DNA of 63,998 nt, filler included, from an uncultured bacterium (lineage in GTDB: Bacteria; DAOPZR01): assembly GCA_964637655.1 (NCBI GenBank). It is 15 parts of 15 records of this genome, joined end to end, with 100 filler letters (N's around TTAATTAATTAA, not from the genome) between each part and the next. Parts side by side here need not be neighbours in the genome. Positions count along the whole stretch, not along the records: positions 27,067 to 31,388 come from CAZWUZ010000304.1; 14 more parts are not named here. One strand, given 5' to 3'. A program made the position numbers and the translations under genes. Position 1 is the first letter of the stretch. Each line of letters opens with the position of its first letter. A model generated the notes under the pieces. That model was given only the letters and a program-made list of their open reading frames with translations, had not been told where the DNA came from and did not search any database. Shown one piece after another: positions 23,841 through 31,488 of the stretch.

Positions 23841-24484
23841 GCGACGCGCCGCGCGACGCCTGCTGGAACCGCATCGGTGTCTGGGGCGACGGCACGGAAC
23901 GCTGCCCGCGCCTCGACGAGACCATCACCTGTGTCAATTGCGACGTCTACGCCGCGGCAGGACGCGCGTTCTTCGCGCGTCCCGCGCCTGACGCCTACCT
24001 CGCCGAGTGGACGACGCTGCTCACCGCCGCCAAGCAGGAAGTGCCAGCCGGGCGGGTCGCGGTCATGGTCTTCCGTCTCGGGGAGGAGCACTACGCGGTG
24101 CCGGTGGTCGCGGTGCGCGAGGTGCTCAATAACCGCCGCTGCCACAGCATCCCGCATCGCAGCAGCCCGCTGCTCATCGGCCTCGCGTTCGTGCATGGCG
24201 AGATGGTGCTCTGCGGCGGACTGCCGGCGCTGCTCGGGTGCGACTGCACCGCCACGCCGCAGCGTGCGCTGCTGCTCGAGGCCGACGGGGAACGCTGGTT
24301 CTGCCCGGTGGCCGCCGTCGAGGCGGTGACGCATATCGACCTGCAGGTACTGGAAAAACCGCCGGTGTCGGTCAGCAAATCGGCGGCGCCCTTCCTGCAG
24401 GGGATATTCCGCCGCAATGATGAACCGGTCGGGCTGCTGGTCGCCCCCGCGGTGCTGCAGGCGCTGCGCCGGAGCGTGGCATGA
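23837..24484 (+). CDS. cheW: CheW-domain protein (WspD-like)
   Basis: CWNRIGVWGD...CP.L...C.NC.VY N-terminus, then CheW domain (HSIPHR, GLAFVHGE); ATGA-coupled. Confidence 0.88.
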   Translation: MSDAPRDACWNRIGVWGDGTERCPRLDETITCVNCDVYAAAGRAFFARPAPDAYLAEWTTLLTAAKQEVPAGRVAVMVFRLGEEHYAVPVVAVREVLNNRRCHSIPHRSSPLLIGLAFVHGEMVLCGGLPALLGCDCTATPQRALLLEADGERWFCPVAAVEAVTHIDLQVLEKPPVSVSKSAAPFLQGIFRRNDEPVGLLVAPAVLQALRRSVA

Positions 24485-26966
24485 GCGGGCTGGGCGACCT
24501 GTCGCTCTACGAACTCTTTCGCGCGGAGGTCGAGACGCAGGCCGCCGTGCTCAACGAGGGTCTGCTCGCGCTCGAACGCGCCCCGCAGGAGACCGCGCGC
24601 ATCGAGCCGCTGATGCGCGCGGCGCACAGCATCAAGGGGGCGGCCCGCATCGTGCAGCTCGACGCCGCGGTGACGGTCGCCCATGCGATGGAGGACCGGC
24701 TGGTCGCCGCGCAGCGCGGGACGAAACCGCTCGACGCGTCGGTCATTGACGCGCTGCTGCGCGGCACCGATATGCTGCAGACGCTGTCGCGCTGTGCCCC
24801 GGGCGAGGTGGCGGCTGCGAGCGCGGCCAGCGCGGCGGAGCGCGAGGCGCTCAGCGCCGCGCTGGCCGGCACCGCCCCGCTGCCGCCGCCTGCTGCCGCG
24901 CCTGCTCCGGTTGCGGCTGCCCCGACTGTCGTGCCCCCGGTCGCTACGCCCGTTGCCGCGCCGCCTGCGACCGCGCCGCCGGCGGTACGGTCTCCGGCCG
25001 CGCCCGCGCCGCCGCTGGCAGACCTGTCGATGTGGGAACTCTTCCGCAGCGAAGTCGAGACGCAGGCGCAGGTGCTCACTGACGGACTGCTGCTGGTGGA
25101 ACGCGAGCAGCAGCCGGACGCGCTGGCGACGCTGATGCGTGCGGCGCACAGTATCAAGGGGGCGGCGCGCATGGTGCGCTGCGACCCGGCAGTGCGCCTC
25201 GCGCATGTGATGGAGGACCGGCTCGTCGCGGCGCAGCGGGGAACGCTGCTCACGGCTGACACGATTGACGCGCTGTTGCGCGGCACCGACCTGCTGCGCG
25301 CGGCCGCGCAGAGCGATCCCGGCGCGATCGCGGAGTGGGCAGCCGCGCAGGAAGCGGAGCTCGCGCAGGTTGCCGCGGTCTGCAGCGGGACCGCACCGGC
25401 ACCGCCGGCTGCTCCGGTTGCGCCGCCGCCCGCAGCGCCGCCGGCGGCACCGGTGGCCGCGGCCGTACCGGCGCCGGCACAACCGGCACCGGCAGCACCG
25501 GCACGCCCGGTGCAGCGCGACCTGCGCCTCAGCGCGGAACGTCTCGACCGGCTGCTCGGGCTGGCAGGCGAGGTACTGGTCGAGGCGCGCCGCCTGCATG
25601 AGGTGGCCGCCATGCTGCAGGCGGGCAAGCGCGACCTGGGCGACCTGAACAAGCTGCTCGACCGCGCGCGGGAAACGGGGAGCGCGGAACATCTCGAACG
25701 CGCCCTGCGCAGCGGCGAGCAGGCGCGCGCCACGGTGACGGGCAACATCGCCACCTTCGAGCAGATGCTGCGCCGCTCCGAGGCGATTGCCGACCGCCTT
25801 TACCGCGAAGTGGTGGCCAGCCGCATGCGTCCCTTTGCCGACGGGGTCGAGGGGTTCCCGCGCATGTTGCGCGACCTCGCGCGGCAGCTGGGCAAGCAGG
25901 TGCGCCTGAATATCGCCGGGCAGGATACCGGGGTCGACCGCGACATCCTCGAACGCCTCGAGGCGCCCCTTACCCACCTGCTGCGCAATGCGCTCGACCA
26001 TGGTATCGAACTCCCCGCGGAGCGCACCGCGGCGGGCAAGCCGGCCGAGGGAACCATCACGCTCAGCGCGGCGCACCGCGCGGGGATGCTGCTCATCACG
26101 CTGCAGGATGACGGGCGCGGGGTCGACTACGACAAACTGCGCGCGCGCATCCGCGAACGCAACCTCGCCCCGGCCGAGGTGCTCGACAAGGTCAGTCGCG
26201 AGGAACTGCTCGAATTCCTCTACCTGCCGGGCTTTTCCACCGCCGCGCAGGTGAGTGAAATCTCCGGGCGCGGGGTCGGCATGGATGTCGTGCTGACGAC
26301 CATGCAGGAGGTGGGCGGGACCATCCGCACCGTGTCGGAGACGGGACAGGGGATGTGCGTGACGCTGCACCTGCCGCTGACCCTGTCGGTCATCCGCGCG
26401 CTGCTCGTCGAACTGGCGGGGGAAATCTACGCTTTCCCGCTGGCCCGGCTTGACCGCGCGCTGCTTGCTGACCAGGACGCGGTGCGCAGCATCGAGGGAC
26501 GTCAGTATCTCACGGTCGACGACGACAATATCGGGCTGATCAGCGCGCGGCAGGTGCTTGGGCTGCCGGAGACCCCGCCCGCCGAAGCGGTGCCGGTGGC
26601 GGTGGTCAGCGACCGCATGCACCGCTACGGGCTGGCGGTCGACCGGTTTATCGGCGAGGTCGACCTCGTGGTCAAGCGCCTTGACCGCCGGCTGGGCAAG
26701 GTACCCGACATCAGCGCCGCGGCGCAATGCGCCGACGGGACGCCCGTGCTCATCTTCGATGTCGACGACCTCGTGCGCTCGGTGGACAACCTGCTGCATG
26801 GCAGCCGCCCGCGCCGCGTCGCCGGGCTCGCCGAGCGCGGCCGCCGCACGCGCGTGCTGGTCGTCGACGATTCGCTCACCGTGCGCGAGGTCGAACGCAA
26901 GCTGCTCGAAAACCACGGCTACGAGGTGACCGTGGCGGTGGACGGGATGGACGGCTGGCACGCGGT
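24481..26966 (+). CDS. cheA: Hybrid CheA-REC kinase (WspE-like) with two Hpt domains, 3'-truncated
   Basis: Two MRAAHSIKGAAR Hpt motifs, HLLRNALDHG, DDGRG, SGRGVGMD, CheW domain, start of REC (VLVVDDSLTVR). Confidence 0.93.
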
Positions 26967-27066
26967 NNNNNNNNNNNNNNNNNNNNNNNNNNNNNNNNNN
27001 NNNNNNNNNNTTAATTAATTAANNNNNNNNNNNNNNNNNNNNNNNNNNNNNNNNNNNNNNNNNNNN

Positions 27067-27160
27067 CGAACACCGCCGCCGCCAGCAGCAGCATGAGAAT
27101 AGCGGCGCTGAGCGCCAGCAGCAGCAGGTCCTGCACCAGCAGGTGGGCCACTCCCGTCAC
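27067..27160 (-). CDS. N-terminal TM segment of a truncated membrane protein
   Basis: GTG...LLLLALSAAILMLLAAAVF directly after the response regulator stop. Confidence 0.4.
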
Positions 27161-27164
27161 GGGG

Positions 27165-28592
27165 TCAGCGCCGCAGCAGGCGGCGCACGCGCGCCGCCAG
27201 TTCAGTCGGGGAAAAGGGCTTGGTCAGGTAGTCGCTCGCCCCCAGCGCGAGGCCGCGCGCGATATCACGGTCGGCACTCAGCCCGGTCAGCAGCATCACC
27301 GGCAGCGCGGCATGCTGCGGCTGCGCGCGTACCGCCTGCAGCACCTGCAGCCCGTCGAGCACCGGCATCTGCACGTCAAGCAGCAGCAGGTCACAGCCGC
27401 GGGCCGCCAGCGCGTCGAGTGCCGCCTGCCCGTCCGCCGCGCACTCGACCGTCAGCCCCTCGCGGGTCAGCCGGTGGCGGACCAGCGCGGCAAAGAGGTC
27501 GTCATCCTCCGCCAGCAGCACGCGGTGGGGCGACCCGACGCTGCAGGTCGCCGGGGTCACCGTGCGGTCACGCCCGTGCGCCTTGGCCTCCTCGAGGCAG
27601 CGCAGGGCTTCATCCAGCGCCTCGTCAGCAGCACCCGTCCCTGCCGGCGCCACCCCCGCGGAAAAGGTGCCCCCACCCGCGGTACGAAACGCCTGCCGCG
27701 CCGCCTCCACCGCAGCGGTCGCTGCCGGCAGGTCACTGCCGGTAATAAGCACCGCCAGCGTCCCGCCCGCCCAGCGCGCCACGCAGGCCGGGGCCGGGGA
27801 CGTCGCCTGCAGCGCCGCCACGGCCTGACGCAACAGGGCATTGCCCGCTGCCTCCCCGCGGGCGGCATTGTATGCCGTCAGTCCGTCGAGGTCGACCGCC
27901 GTAAGCAGCGCCGGCGTGCCTGCCGGCAGTGCGGCCAGCGCCTGTACCAGTGCGGCGCGGCTGCCGGCCCCGGTCACCGGGTCGAGCAGTGGCGAAGCCG
28001 GCGCCGCGGCCAGCCGGGCGATAACTGTCGCAGTGAGCAACGCGACATCGAACGGTTTTTCGAAATACCCGGCAGCGCCGAGGGCGAGGCATTCCGCTTT
28101 GACCACCGCTCCCGGATGCCCGGAGAGCACGATAACCGGAATGGCTGCCGTTGCCGGTGTCTCCTTGAAAGCGACCAGCAGGTTGCGTCCGTCCGCGTCG
28201 CCCAGCGTCAGGTCGAGCAGGATCAGGTCAATGGCGTGCGTGGCGAGCAGCTGCCGCGTCGCGGGCACATCGGTGGCGAGCACCACCTGCTGCCCCGCCC
28301 GCGTCAGCACCGCCCGCAGCAAGGCGCCAATGGCCGGGTCATCATCGATGACCAGCACGGTCCGGGCCGCCTGTCCGGGGAGTGCCGCCAGCAGTTCCGC
28401 CCCCGCCGCGCGGCAGGCGGCATCATCCGCCGCCGCGCGCAGGCGTGCCGCCGCGGCGTGCACTGCCGTCGGCGCCGCGACCGGCAGCACGGACGCCAGG
28501 CGGCGCAGGGTCGCCGCCGCCGGTGCTGATTCCGCCAGGGCGAGTCGCAACGCTTCACGCATGCCGGCCAGCGCCGACACCGGTTCCGTCAC
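27165..28592 (-). CDS. REC-GGDEF(degenerate)-REC response regulator
   Basis: Two REC domains (VLVIDDD, LLAEDDD, KPF); central DPVTG...DLDG..YN...G...GN..L with RWAGGTL in place of GGDEF. Confidence 0.85.
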   Translation of the reverse strand: MTEPVSALAGMREALRLALAESAPAAATLRRLASVLPVAAPTAVHAAAARLRAAADDAACRAAGAELLAALPGQAARTVLVIDDDPAIGALLRAVLTRAGQQVVLATDVPATRQLLATHAIDLILLDLTLGDADGRNLLVAFKETPATAAIPVIVLSGHPGAVVKAECLALGAAGYFEKPFDVALLTATVIARLAAAPASPLLDPVTGAGSRAALVQALAALPAGTPALLTAVDLDGLTAYNAARGEAAGNALLRQAVAALQATSPAPACVARWAGGTLAVLITGSDLPAATAAVEAARQAFRTAGGGTFSAGVAPAGTGAADEALDEALRCLEEAKAHGRDRTVTPATCSVGSPHRVLLAEDDDLFAALVRHRLTREGLTVECAADGQAALDALAARGCDLLLLDVQMPVLDGLQVLQAVRAQPQHAALPVMLLTGLSADRDIARGLALGASDYLTKPFSPTELAARVRRLLRR

Positions 28593-28617
28593 GTCGGTAT
28601 CCTTCCGTCTGTCCGGT

Positions 28618-29361
28618 TCAGAGGAACTTCGAGGTGCTCTTCTTCTTTTCCATGCCGAGGAAATACTTCACCGCATGGTACGGGATGATAAACTGGTGAT
28701 GCGTCGAATCGGAGAGGACGATTTCCGGCTGGTTGAGTTCGTTCTGGCGCACCGCACGCAGTTTGCCGAGCATCTCCCCCCCCTCGGGGAAGACCACCTT
28801 GATCTCGGTGCCCTCCTCGATGAGCCGCTGCAGCGTCATCAGTTCCGGGCCGCCTCCGGTCGTCTCGCTGCCGCCCGCCTCGCCGGCCGCATCAGCCCCG
28901 GTGCCGCCGCCCCACTGCACGGCGTTGACGATGCGGTCGCTGGCCCCGCGCAGGCGTCCGGCCAGCAGTTGCGCCGTCGCGGTCATCACCTTGACCGCCA
29001 GCGCGGGATGCGTCGCCGCCAGCGTGTCGTACTGCGCGTGGTCCATTTCGAGCACCACGGAGGTCTGCAACGCGCGCGCCGTGGCGCTGCGCGGGCTGAC
29101 ATCGAGAAACGCCAGTTCGCCGAAGACGTCGCCGGGCCGCATCAGCCCGAGGATCTTCTCGCTGCCGTCCGTCCCCTTCTTGACGATCTTGACCCCGCCC
29201 TCGCGCACGATGAAGAGCGCCGTGCCGCTGTCCCCCTGGTTGAATACCGGGGCCTGCGCCTCGACCGTGCGCTCGCGCAGCGCGCCCGCCAGCGCGACGA
29301 CCTCCTCGTCGTTCAGATCCTTGCACAGCGAGGTGACTTTCAGAAAATCGGCAGCGCTCAT
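28618..29361 (-). CDS. Cyclic-nucleotide-binding protein with C-terminal Hfq/Sm-like domain
   Basis: VFNQGD, FGELAFLDVSPRSATARA; Gly-rich linker; C-terminus IKVVFPEGGEMLGKL...QFIIPYHAVKYF; no Crp HTH. Confidence 0.8.
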   Translation of the reverse strand: MSAADFLKVTSLCKDLNDEEVVALAGALRERTVEAQAPVFNQGDSGTALFIVREGGVKIVKKGTDGSEKILGLMRPGDVFGELAFLDVSPRSATARALQTSVVLEMDHAQYDTLAATHPALAVKVMTATAQLLAGRLRGASDRIVNAVQWGGGTGADAAGEAGGSETTGGGPELMTLQRLIEEGTEIKVVFPEGGEMLGKLRAVRQNELNQPEIVLSDSTHHQFIIPYHAVKYFLGMEKKKSTSKFL

Positions 29362-29394
29362 GGTCCGGCCTCCCTGCGGTTTGCCCGCCAGTGG

Positions 29395-29423
29395 ATTGTA
29401 GCCATCCTGCCGCCCCCCGTCAA
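29395..29423 (-). promoter_or_regulatory. sigma70-type promoter for the cNMP gene
   Basis: TTGACG-17 nt-TACAAT; AGGGAGG RBS downstream. Confidence 0.65.
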
Positions 29424-30472
29424 GGCGCGTCCTCCCCCCCGGCCGGCAGCAGCGGGAGCGACAGCTTGACCCGTGTCCCCTGCCCGGGCGCCGACTCGAT
29501 GAGGATGGCCCCGCGATGCGCGCGGATGATCTCGCTGGTGATCGACAGGCCCAGCCCGAACCCGCGCGCCGGGCGCGGCGGCTTGGCCGACGCCTTGTAG
29601 AACTTGCGCAGCACCAGGGTGCGCTCCTCCTCGGGGATGCCGCACCCGGTGTCGGCGACAGTCAGCAGCACATGCTGCCCGAGTTGCTCCGCCTGCAGGG
29701 AGATACTCCCCCCCGCCGGGGTGAACTTCACGGCATTGTCGACGAGGTTGATCAGCACCTGTTCGAGCCGGTCGCGGTCGGCAACCAGGGCGAACCCGTC
29801 GGGGATGGCCGTCGACCAGTGCAGGTCGTGCTCGCGCAGCAGCGGGGCGAAGAGCGCCGCCACCGAGGCGGCAAGGTCAGCGAGCCGCAGCGGCATAAAG
29901 CGGAACTGCACCATGCCGCGTTCGAGCTTGAGCAGGTCGATCTGCGCGTTGACCAGCTTGACCAGGCGCTGCGTGTGGTCGCCGATGATGGCGAGAAAGC
30001 GCCGCGCATTCTCCGGTTCGTCAATCGCCCCGTCACGCAGCGTCTCGATGAACCCGAGCATCGAGGTGAGCGGGGTGCGCAGCTCGTGGCTGACATTCTC
30101 GATGAAGGTCTTCTGCACGCGCTCGGTGCGCCGCGCCTCGCTGACATCGTGCAGCAGCAGCAGCAGGCGGTGGTCGTCACCGTCCGCGTAGGGGACGAAC
30201 GTCACCCGGTACTCGCTGCGCTCCTCCCCGAGCTGCGCTTCGACGCTGTCCGCGCGCAGCGTGGCCACGGCATTGTAGCCGCGGTTGAGCAGGTCGAGGT
30301 CGGGGAGAAAATCGCCGAGGTGACGCCCGGCGGCGGTCGCCGGCGCCGTGCGCAGCAGCGCCGCCAGCGGCTGGTTGAGGTAGAGCAGCGTGCCGCTGCC
30401 GTCGAGCAGCGCCACCCCGTCGTCGAGATGCTCCGCCAGCAGGCGCAGCGCCTCGGGCACCGCCGCGCTCAT
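29420..30472 (-). CDS. Soluble PAS histidine kinase (PhoR-like)
   Basis: NVSHELRTPLTS H-box, NLVDNAVKFT, DTGCGI, GFGLGL; no TM helix. Confidence 0.9.
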   Translation of the reverse strand: MSAAVPEALRLLAEHLDDGVALLDGSGTLLYLNQPLAALLRTAPATAAGRHLGDFLPDLDLLNRGYNAVATLRADSVEAQLGEERSEYRVTFVPYADGDDHRLLLLLHDVSEARRTERVQKTFIENVSHELRTPLTSMLGFIETLRDGAIDEPENARRFLAIIGDHTQRLVKLVNAQIDLLKLERGMVQFRFMPLRLADLAASVAALFAPLLREHDLHWSTAIPDGFALVADRDRLEQVLINLVDNAVKFTPAGGSISLQAEQLGQHVLLTVADTGCGIPEEERTLVLRKFYKASAKPPRPARGFGLGLSITSEIIRAHRGAILIESAPGQGTRVKLSLPLLPAGGEDAP

Positions 30473-31161
30473 TCCGCCAGGGTGTAGCCGACGCCGCGGA
30501 TGGTCTTCAGCGGCGGCTGCATGCCGTCAAGCTTGCTGCGCAGGCGGCGGATATGCACGTCGATGGTGCGCTGGTCGCCGTAGTAGTCGCGGCCCCAGAC
30601 CTCGTCGAGGATATCGTTGCGGGTGAGCACCCGTCCGCGCTCGCGCACGAAGAGCAGCAGCAGGGCGAACTCCTTCTGCGTCAGTTCCACCCGCTGCCCC
30701 GCCACCTCGACCAGCCGGCGCGACTCGTCGATGCGCAGGTTGCCGGTGGCAACCGGTTCCGGGTCGGCCGCCGCCTGCGTCCGCCGCAGCAGCGCCTTCA
30801 GCCGGGCGAGCAGTTCCGCCATTTCGAACGGCTTGCCGAGGTAGTCATCGGCGCCGAGGTTGAGCCCGGTGACGCGGTCGTTGACCTCGGCCCGCGCGGT
30901 GAGCATGAGCACCGGCCAGCGCCGCGTCTTCTTCTCCTCGCGCAGCTGCCGGCAGATATCGAGCCCGTCCATGTCGGGGAGCATCAGGTCGAGCACCACC
31001 GCGCTGAACTCGCCGCTGAACGCCAGCCGCAGCGCCGTGCTGCCGTCCGCCGCGCGCGCCACCTCGTAGTTCTGCTTGCGCAGGTTGTATTCCAGCAGCT
31101 CCCCGATATCCTGCTCATCCTCGACCACGAGGATGCGCGGGCGGCGCAGGGGCGCGCTCAT
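30469..31161 (-). CDS. OmpR/PhoB-family response regulator
   Basis: ILVVEDE, LDLMLP, GADDYLGKPF, RTIDVHIRRLR, TIRGVGY. Confidence 0.93.
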   Translation of the reverse strand: MSAPLRRPRILVVEDEQDIGELLEYNLRKQNYEVARAADGSTALRLAFSGEFSAVVLDLMLPDMDGLDICRQLREEKKTRRWPVLMLTARAEVNDRVTGLNLGADDYLGKPFEMAELLARLKALLRRTQAAADPEPVATGNLRIDESRRLVEVAGQRVELTQKEFALLLLFVRERGRVLTRNDILDEVWGRDYYGDQRTIDVHIRRLRSKLDGMQPPLKTIRGVGYTLAE

Positions 31162-31388
31162 CGCCCCGCCGCCCGCTGCAGCCGCACGACATGTTCGTAC
31201 GGCAATTTGATAGTCCCGAGATAGATGCGGTCCTTGGCGGCACCGTGACAATCCGAGCCGCCAGTCACGCAGAGATTGGCGCGGCGCGCCACCGCGAGGA
31301 ATCGTTCTGTGTCCGCCGGCGAATGGTCGGGGTAGTAGACCTCGATGCCGCCGATGCCCAGCTCGATCAGCCGGTCGAGATCGCCCGG
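31158..31388 (-). CDS. PHP-domain phosphoesterase (TrpH/YciV-like), C-terminal part
   Basis: Manual translation GIEVYYPDH...VTGGSDCHG; ATGA-coupled to the regulator. Confidence 0.85.
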   Translation of the reverse strand, partial: PGDLDRLIELGIGGIEVYYPDHSPADTERFLAVARRANLCVTGGSDCHGAAKDRIYLGTIKLPYEHVVRLQRAAGR

Positions 31389-31488
31389 NNNNNNNNNNNN
31401 NNNNNNNNNNNNNNNNNNNNNNNNNNNNNNNNTTAATTAATTAANNNNNNNNNNNNNNNNNNNNNNNNNNNNNNNNNNNNNNNNNNNN

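Follow-up and report, generated by a model that had tools for sequence, protein, structure and literature searches.

A predicted cyclic-nucleotide receptor with a divergent Hfq-like domain in an uncultured bacterium

Bacterial cyclic-nucleotide receptors are known to act on transcription factors, on channels and enzymes, and on a small number of other outputs. To our knowledge, Hfq occurs almost only as a stand-alone ring; the subunits of Sm and Hfq rings join strand 4 to strand 5 of their neighbour, and the N-terminal helix of Hfq sits on the proximal face. Apart from the protein described here, the only bacterial polypeptides known to us that combine an Sm-like part with a cyclic-nucleotide-binding (cNMP-binding) domain are the bCNG proteins, MscS-family channels in which the latter domain is C-terminal. 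In Synechocystis, according to a review, Hfq acts via contact with the C-terminal four-Cys domain of PilB1, and an hfq mutant and a mutant of the cAMP receptor Sycrp1 (sycrp1) have top deregulated transcripts in common (PMC4390875). The DNA analyzed here, referred to as the window, is a stretch of 63,998 nucleotides (filler included) made of 15 joined parts of the genome of an uncultured bacterium (GCA_964637655.1). Its minus strand carries an intact open reading frame (ORF) at 28618..29361, with 247 codons and a stop, whose product, P0001, consists of a cNMP-binding domain, a C-helix, a Trp-Gly pair (WG), a Gly-rich linker, a predicted Hfq-like domain and a basic C-terminal tip.

Sequence comparison indicates that P0001 is the product of a genuine gene, as full-length and tail relatives share its architecture, with 63-66% identity over the full length and 21-55% over the tail. 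The architecture is surprising, and each half belongs, by sequence, to a known superfamily. A preliminary description of the same DNA had quoted the peptides FGELAF...PRSATARA and, for the tail, TLQRLIEEGTEIKVVFPEGGEMLGKLRAV...IVLSD...QFIIPYHAVKYF, all of which were found in the ORF. It had also stated that no characterized example was at hand, in agreement with literature searches (most subscription journals lay outside their coverage) that returned no account of a fusion of a cNMP-binding domain with Hfq or an Sm domain; within that literature, the combination is very rare and undescribed. Because the Hfq-like domain follows an intact cNMP cassette, a cyclic-nucleotide-controlled Sm module appears to be a fair description of P0001; of this earlier proposal, the cassette and the Sm-like tail stand, and the control itself is predicted from the architecture. 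The reading developed below, to which we give even weight for and against, is that P0001 is a soluble cyclic-nucleotide receptor with a divergent Hfq ring as its output and, probably, a non-canonical ligand.

The C-terminal domain and its relation to Hfq

The Hfq-like (Sm-fold) domain, assigned from predicted structure and profile comparison, comprises a helix and five strands and occupies residues 172-237 (28651..28848, minus strand). AlphaFold2, run on an alignment of 14 family tails (residues 168-247 in P0001), produced a model with a pLDDT of 82.6 and a pTM of 0.66, in which 44 of 80 residues reached at least 90 and the elements (helix 5-13; strands 19-23, 29-39, 45-50, 56-60 and 66-70, in tail numbering) follow the Sm topology. 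When the model was compared with the PDB by Foldseek, the best match was Synechocystis Hfq (3hfo_A, E 9.6e-4, TM 0.74 by target length), the sole one at E <= 0.001; further matches to Hfq of S. aureus, Listeria, B. subtilis, E. coli, Aquifex, Caulobacter and Pseudomonas were interspersed with Tudor, YaeO and MscS domains. VIA-align, which is independent of Foldseek, was run against 48,161 representative chains and gave Hfq in seven of its ten top rows (Z 8.0-8.6, 57-66 residues aligned), with the matches covering nearly the whole Hfq core, helix included. Since a Z of about 8 is graded as middling in the guidance of VIA-align itself, sequence-level evidence was sought by profile-profile comparison.

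For this purpose, the family profile was aligned by hhalign with one true Hfq (E 3.5e-28), that of genome G003, in which a family member is also encoded, giving a P value of 0.0013. Alignment with nine Hfq cores, either annotated or defined by tblastn (the G003 protein plus eight cores from plasmid-collection records, five annotated 'RNA chaperone Hfq'), gave a probability of 88.2% (E 2.9e-6, 53 columns), and a rerun gave 90.6% (E 1.3e-6). In the controls, reversal of either profile never exceeded 2.9%, and the highest of 30 shufflings of the columns of the nine-Hfq alignment was 6.9% (E 0.0052). The two profiles align in Sm1/Sm2 register: G199 falls on the Sm1 Gly, and the Sm2-like motif I226-P227-Y228-H229-A230-V231 falls on I-Y-K-H-A-V. 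Relative to Hfq, the family has a single insertion of 5-6 residues in the strand 2-3 loop, the remainder being in Hfq register; the preliminary description had noted a longer loop.

Searches with curated models and single sequences gave fainter signals. The P0001 tail matched Pfam Hfq_1 (PF21979) at E 0.077, with 13.6 bits against a cut-off of 27 and coverage of positions 2-58 of 61, and NCBIfam Hfq_rel_Cyano (NF047718) at E 0.085, with 13.1 bits against a cut-off of 52. Hfq_1 was matched by six of eight tails at E < 10 (best 0.023), and PRC, LSM and SH3-type barrels were each matched by one or two; a profile search of the family tails gave no match to PF17209. A single-sequence search of the PDB with the tail gave no match, no row of two PDB profile searches passed the threshold (all at E >= 0.08, with Hfq/Sm chains standing among eS4, HtrA1 and flagellin), and a protein-atlas look-up returned low scores (0.79-0.81) that included some Hfq_1 clusters and can serve only as a lead.

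These mixed matches bear on the alternative that the tail is a monomeric small beta-barrel of the SH3, PRC or Tudor kind, whose likeness to Hfq would arise from shared topology and a thin alignment. Such a barrel would account for the sub-threshold matches to PRC (E 0.0023, in one of eight tails), RimM PRC and RimP SH3 models and for Tudor, BirA C-terminal and RimP barrels that score near Hfq, and the VIA-align guidance warns that models lacking true relatives often reach a Z of 7-8. However, the Hfq matches span the helix and all five strands (65/65, 62/63 and 57/57 residues), whereas SH3-like matches such as the BirA C-terminus begin at residue 15 and align 48-49 residues. The in-register profile match to Hfq at 88-91%, compared with 7% or less in the controls, the weak matches of six of eight tails to Hfq_1, and a modeled interface of Sm type (see below) also argue against it, and we regard a plain small barrel as very improbable.

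It is therefore highly probable, in our judgment, that the tail is an Hfq-homologous Sm fold. Fold prediction and profile homology together would place it in the Hfq/Sm superfamily; it was not filed as Hfq proper because its scores lie below the curated cut-offs and the chaperone residues are largely replaced. The preliminary description had proposed an Sm-fold tail and had named prediction of a non-Sm fold as one outcome that would speak against it; the AlphaFold2 model, the Foldseek and VIA-align matches to Hfq and the hhalign probabilities of 88-91% agree with one another, and the predicted fold is of the Sm/Hfq type.

The sensor half and the family

The cNMP-binding beta-barrel of P0001 (residues 31-117; 29011..29271, minus strand) matches Pfam PF00027 at E 1.3e-23, with 83.2 bits against a cut-off of 27.5, over profile positions 2-88 of 89. 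Its phosphate-binding cassette, G81-E82...R91-S92-A93...A95 (GELAFLDVSPRSATA; 29077..29121, minus strand), was delimited from the family alignment, in which G81 and E82 are invariant in all ten full-length members and R91, S92 and A95 are retained in nine. On both profile and cassette, P0001 is by sequence a member of the cNMP-binding-domain superfamily, and the cassette is intact, as had been proposed. Binding of a cyclic nucleotide is accordingly predicted with good confidence from the sequence; by analogy with other receptors, an R-S-A cassette would favor cAMP over cGMP. One relative departs from this pattern: in the family member of genome G002 (L005, 5527-6204, plus strand), the Arg-Ser of the cassette is lost (ICNMT for PRSAT), with the WG and the Hfq-like domain retained, and this protein, judged from its sequence, may no longer bind cyclic nucleotide.

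Assignment of P0001 as a Crp/Fnr regulator was considered and rejected. The NCBIfam CRP model matches residues 26-146 only, at 48.9 bits against a cut-off of 266, and P0001 aligns with CRP residues 21-138, the sensor part alone. No helix-turn-helix (HTH) domain was found in P0001 in a Pfam search extended to E 10, in accord with the earlier statement that the Crp HTH is missing.

The C-helix region of the sensor (residues 119-149; 28915..29007, minus strand), in which R136 is invariant, was defined from the alignment and a low-confidence full-length model, where residues 119-139 are helical and the linker has a pLDDT below 50. That model, computed by AlphaFold2 with four sequences, has a pLDDT of 42.5 and is unusable for the packing of sensor against tail. 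Immediately past the C-helix stands the signature of the family, W150-G151 (28909..28914, minus strand), invariant in all ten full-length members and present also in the fragments P0005, P0014 and P0015. It is followed by a linker rich in Gly, Ala, Thr and Glu (residues 152-171; 28849..28908, minus strand), corresponding to the Gly-rich linker of the preliminary description, for which a Gly-rich stretch was located at residues 151-171. The stretch between the WG and the Hfq-like helix is Gly/Ala-rich and 20-26 residues long in the close group (20 in P0001) and measures about 0-6 residues in distant members. The base bound by a cNMP-binding domain is often capped by an aromatic residue that follows the hinge helix. 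By this analogy, Trp150 may cap the base and thereby exert a pull on the N-terminal end of the Hfq-like domain, and we propose that the Trp-Gly pair is a lid or coupling element.

The family to which P0001 belongs was delimited by several searches. With the tail as query, a word-index search gave four proteins at E <= 0.001 among ten candidates, and an exhaustive phmmer search of 1.84 billion representatives gave five matches at E <= 0.001, the query being counted in both cases. Profile searches scored 7,998 longer proteins, of which eight stood at E <= 0.01 and carried PF00027 without exception, and gave four shorter ones at E <= 0.1 among 399 candidates. Scans of 185,579 species genomes and of JGI metagenomes each gave three loci, out of 32 and 247 pattern matches, respectively. 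Across all searches, the tail alignment comprises 14 distinct family tails. Ten members are full length, and all ten combine a cNMP domain with the tail; P0005, P0014 and P0015 start within the sensor C-helix and are fragments, and P0006, a 68-aa entry, is an apparent stand-alone tail for which an intact protein and a contig-end fragment were not told apart. On sequence grounds, the family is real and very rare, with a sensor on every member that has enough N-terminal sequence. Database names for its proteins go no further than 'cyclic nucleotide-binding domain-containing protein'. Both GTDB species genomes of the phylum of the source genome, G000, carry a P0001-type gene, and the host of another member (L006) is Candidatus Hydrogenedentota. 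The preliminary description had allowed that related uncharacterized proteins may exist; the survey of homologs and neighborhoods that it had suggested yielded no conserved partner gene.

Assembly, surface residues and the possible ligand

Self-association of the tail was modeled with ESMFold2. Four tail copies gave ipSAE values of 0.48, 0.43 and 0.42 (median 0.43), compared with 0.00 in all three controls; in a two-copy calibration, 20 of 30 solved homo-pairs attained this mark, as did one of 23 single chains. The four-copy runs share at least 92% of their contacts, with partner pLDDT of at least 71, and set residues 55-60 (strand 4) against residues 64-68 (strand 5) and 7-11 (helix) of the next copy. 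On the strength of these models, oligomerization through an Sm interface is somewhat more probable than its absence. The ring formation considered possible in the preliminary description gains from the modeled strand 4/strand 5' contact, to the extent that four copies can represent a ring.

The surface of this putative ring differs greatly from that of Hfq. Roles have been assigned in Hfq to the rim, to a distal Tyr and to proximal Gln, Phe, Lys and His residues, which are numbered here as in the G003 protein (E. coli numbering is higher by two before the strand 3-4 loop and by one after it, from L020). The rim R14-K15-K16-K17 is I-E-E-G in the family, tail position 16 being acidic in 13 of 14 tails; distal Y23 is replaced by Val, Thr, Leu and similar residues; proximal Q6 corresponds to a variable column and stacking F40 to the Gly/Asn-rich inserted loop; and K55 is Tyr in 13 tails and Phe in one. 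H56-A57 is retained, with His and Ala each present in 12 of 14 tails. Among the nine columns invariant in the nine Hfqs, the Sm1 Gly alone is invariant in the family. The net charge of the core is -1 to -5 in 13 members and 0 in one (pI 4.4-6.9), compared with +6 for G003 Hfq. The Hfq rim is reported to act in annealing (PMC3753642).

In place of these residues, the family has fixed positions of its own: G199, E/D213 at the start of strand 3, D218-S/T219-T220 in the strand 3-4 loop, F224, I226-P227-Y228-H229 and Y233. Judged from the alignment, it therefore has its own conserved surface, formed by an acidic helix end (I-[DE]-[DE]), a D-S/T-T-G-H loop, the acidic start of strand 3 and the I-P-Y-H-A motif on the pore side. 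The C-terminal tip of P0001, EKKKSTSKFL (28621..28650, minus strand; net +3), was recognized in the tail alignment in six of 14 tails (as EKKKSTSRFL in one), a seventh tail ends in GKKKAFF, and the tip is missing in the other seven. The six tip-bearing tails are only 52-70% identical overall, yet their tips are identical or nearly so. A search of the source genome for KKKSTSKFL in other proteins found none, the one match being the gene itself. For E. coli Hfq, an acidic C-terminal tip is reported (PMC5606850); the basic tip and acidic helix end of the family are the reverse of an acidic-tip/basic-rim arrangement.

A ring with such a surface is probably not a general sRNA-mRNA chaperone, because it has lost the basic rim and the distal site and its core is acidic. 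The name 'RNA chaperone' in the preliminary description is not supported, given the replaced rim, distal Tyr and proximal Gln/Phe/Lys columns and a net acidic core in all but one of 14 members; of its 'RNA- or protein-binding module', the RNA side is weakened by the lost residues and protein binding is now at least as likely. Whether the main ligand is something other than RNA we consider evenly poised. From the sequence, a basic protein or peptide appears more likely than bulk RNA; in about half of the family, the protein's own Lys-rich C-terminal tip could be the ligand, and a specialized RNA end or a nucleotide is possible. The binding of PilB1 by Synechocystis Hfq provides a precedent for a non-RNA output of a P0001 ring. 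A further observation comes from the G002 locus, where the ORF directly downstream of the family member (L005, 6226-6423, plus strand) encodes 65 aa that include two CxxC pairs and an acidic tail; its resemblance to the four-Cys PilB1 domain bound by Synechocystis Hfq is a coincidence at one locus, of use only as a lead.

In the mechanism envisaged for a cyclic-nucleotide receptor with a divergent Hfq ring, P0001 would assemble into an Hfq-like ring. Since Hfq carries its N-terminal helix on the proximal face, the sensor domains would hang from the corresponding helices above that face. Binding of cAMP or cGMP would shift the C-helix and the invariant Trp-Gly that follows, and this shift would alter either the assembly of the ring or access to its pore and rim.

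Several considerations weigh against this reading. The structural evidence is wholly predicted, with an alignment of 14 rows and a middling Z of about 8; SH3-like barrels that lack the helix stand at Z 7-8, just under the Hfq rows of VIA-align; and the P0001 tail falls far below the cut-offs of the Pfam and NCBIfam Hfq models. The four-copy result may stem from solved Hfq/Sm rings that the model has memorized, and oligomer modeling, which covered four copies, addresses the interface and not ring closure or stoichiometry. The flexible 20-residue linker of P0001 speaks against tight mechanical coupling of sensor and ring, and no partner gene is conserved across the neighborhoods of the window, L004, L005, L006 and L009, so that no protein partner is indicated. 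Finally, the Sm2 His, which in Hfq is a proximal-pore RNA contact, and the Lys-rich tip (7/14) fit an RNA role equally well, as does the lack of a detected canonical Hfq in the two genomes of the phylum.

The last points lead to the alternative that P0001 is a second-messenger-gated RNA chaperone or binder, in which the ring would bind RNA, with a 3' end in the pore via Tyr228/His229 and the Lys-rich tip assisting, and the cyclic nucleotide would switch binding for direct post-transcriptional control. The tail is homologous to Hfq, itself an RNA binder, the Sm2 His-Ala is retained at the pore-side loop, and a basic tip is found in six members, with GKKKAFF in one more. Moreover, profile searches detected no canonical Hfq in G002 or in the roughly 90% complete genomes G000 and G001, and P0001 could be the only Hfq-type protein of its lineage. 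The one weak Hfq-model match in G000 (PF17209, E 0.033), in L010 (1438-2223, plus strand; contig C94), was rejected as a candidate, the protein being a 261-aa bacterial SH3-domain protein; the sister genome carries the same weak match. Against RNA binding stand the acidic core, the replaced rim, distal Tyr and proximal Lys/Gln columns, the Gly/Asn-rich insertion where the stacking-Phe loop would be, and the fact that, of the nine Hfq-invariant columns, the Sm1 Gly alone is invariant in the family. G003 also carries both a true Hfq and a family member, and the two are therefore not simple substitutes. We treat an RNA binder as a tentative alternative that is rather unlikely. A more elaborate version, in which the cyclic nucleotide gates the pore of a divergent Hfq hexamer with six sensors above its proximal face and so couples the messenger to RNA fate, is doubtful; in a variant of it, the acidic rim would stay blocked by the basic tip, which the nucleotide would then release, a charge-inverted form of Hfq self-inhibition.

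The modeled self-association also suits a simpler alternative, namely that the Hfq-like domain is an assembly module and nothing more, multimerizing the sensors into a ring whose output would be buffering of the cyclic nucleotide or contact of the exposed basic tip with a partner or membrane. This would fit the loss of the canonical Hfq ligand sites, the lack of a conserved partner gene in five neighborhoods and a tip that is near-identical in six members whose tails are 52-70% identical. However, the conserved D218, I226-P227-Y228-H229, E213 and Y233 include loop and pore-side residues that assembly would not need, and the tip is missing in seven of 14 members. A role in assembly alone is considered distinctly unlikely.

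Genomic setting and comparison with known systems

The source genome is a metagenome-assembled genome of 485 contigs and 3.99 Mb (90.55% complete, 65.5% G+C). The contig that bears the gene, C304, spans roughly 27019-31390 of the window and is flanked by runs of N (about 26970-27018 and 31392-31436) that part different contigs of one genome; the double-Hpt CheA gene at 24481-27018 is therefore no true neighbor. On C304, all on the minus strand, an OmpR-type response regulator (30469..31251) lies upstream of a PAS-HisKA-HATPase histidine kinase (29420..30472), the immediate upstream neighbor, and a REC-GGDEF-REC protein (27165..28592) is encoded 25 nt downstream. By eye, the latter protein has R-W-A-G-G-T-L-A where GG[DE]EF is expected, and because the active-site motif looks degenerate, it may be a receptor or scaffold and not an active diguanylate cyclase. 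The order of kinase followed by family gene is the only feature of the setting to recur, and it does so within the close group, in the window, L004 and L007. In L004 (regulator, kinase, family gene, dapB), dapB takes the downstream position, with no REC-GGDEF-REC protein there; the order is HU, family gene, the four-Cys ORF and glgA in L005, and rho, M23 peptidase, family gene and an ATP-grasp/FMN-dehydrogenase protein in L006. In L009, the family gene is followed by unannotated ORFs.

A promoter and a ribosome-binding site (RBS) of its own had been ascribed to the P0001 gene, and both patterns are present. A sigma-70-like match, TTGACG-17-TACAAT (29395..29423, minus strand; 10 of 12 positions), overlaps the end of the upstream kinase gene, and a Shine-Dalgarno-like GGGAGG (29369..29374, minus strand) lies 7 nt upstream of the ATG. 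The 4.4-kb contig holds two sigma-70-like sites, against a shuffle mean of 0.2; the second, TCGACC-17-TACAAT (27867-27895, minus strand; 9 of 12), is within the REC-GGDEF-REC gene. When aligned with L004 and L007, the RBS was conserved but both promoter hexamers were not. The sequence thus makes an own promoter plausible in this genome, as a feature that is not family-wide. The source genome has eight class III cyclase-domain matches and 15 cNMP-domain matches, and a cyclic nucleotide is therefore plausibly produced in the host cell; this signaling set is unusually rich for a 4-Mb genome.

If the cNMP-Hfq fusion acts as proposed, it would be the first Hfq-type ring under direct second-messenger control, and, if the pore were gated, a second messenger would govern the fate of RNA with no transcription factor between them, in a phylum without detected canonical Hfq. 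Such fusions also hint at a link between cAMP signaling and Hfq-type proteins elsewhere, an example being the transcripts shared by the hfq and sycrp1 mutants of Synechocystis (PMC4390875). Even without RNA binding, the family would illustrate how the Hfq fold can be turned into a module for regulated assembly or docking. The scope of these statements is a tiny family, from uncultured lineages only, whose ligand is predicted from sequence and models.

Compared with described systems, P0001 shares with CRP/FNR-type cNMP receptors the beta-barrel, the G-E...R-S-A cassette and the long C-helix, but has no HTH output, the C-helix leading instead to the invariant Trp-Gly and the Hfq-like domain. 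In bCNG, the Sm-like part is an internal structural layer of a membrane channel, whereas P0001 is small, with no predicted membrane part; MscS beta domains nevertheless match the tail model at Z 6.8-7.5. Edc3 and Scd6/Lsm14 likewise hold an Sm-fold domain within a longer protein, and their LSm domains, which are protein-binding platforms and not RNA-binding rings, match the tail model at Z 8.0, 7.7 and 6.8. These proteins are eukaryotic, lack a cNMP sensor, carry the LSm domain at the N-terminus and not, as in P0001, at the C-terminus, and have no detectable sequence relation to it. With canonical Hfq (E. coli, S. aureus, Bacillus; PF17209), the P0001 family shares the fold, as predicted, the Sm1 Gly, the Sm2 x-H-A-[IV] and the modeled strand 4/strand 5' interface. 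It differs in having lost the basic rim, distal Tyr and proximal Gln/Phe/Lys, in an acidic core where that of Hfq is basic, in fusion of the domain behind a sensor and, in P0001, in a basic tip where that of E. coli Hfq is reported to be acidic (PMC5606850). The closest likeness is to cyanobacterial Hfq (Synechocystis Ssr3341, 3hfo, PF21979), which is the top structural match by both Foldseek and VIA-align (Z 8.6, 65/65 residues) and the best Pfam/NCBIfam lead for the P0001 tail, with the profile covered throughout. That protein is a stand-alone 70 aa without a sensor domain, whereas the tail of P0001 falls below the family cut-offs, bears the 5-6 residue strand 2-3 insertion and has its own motifs, DSTGH and IPYHA.

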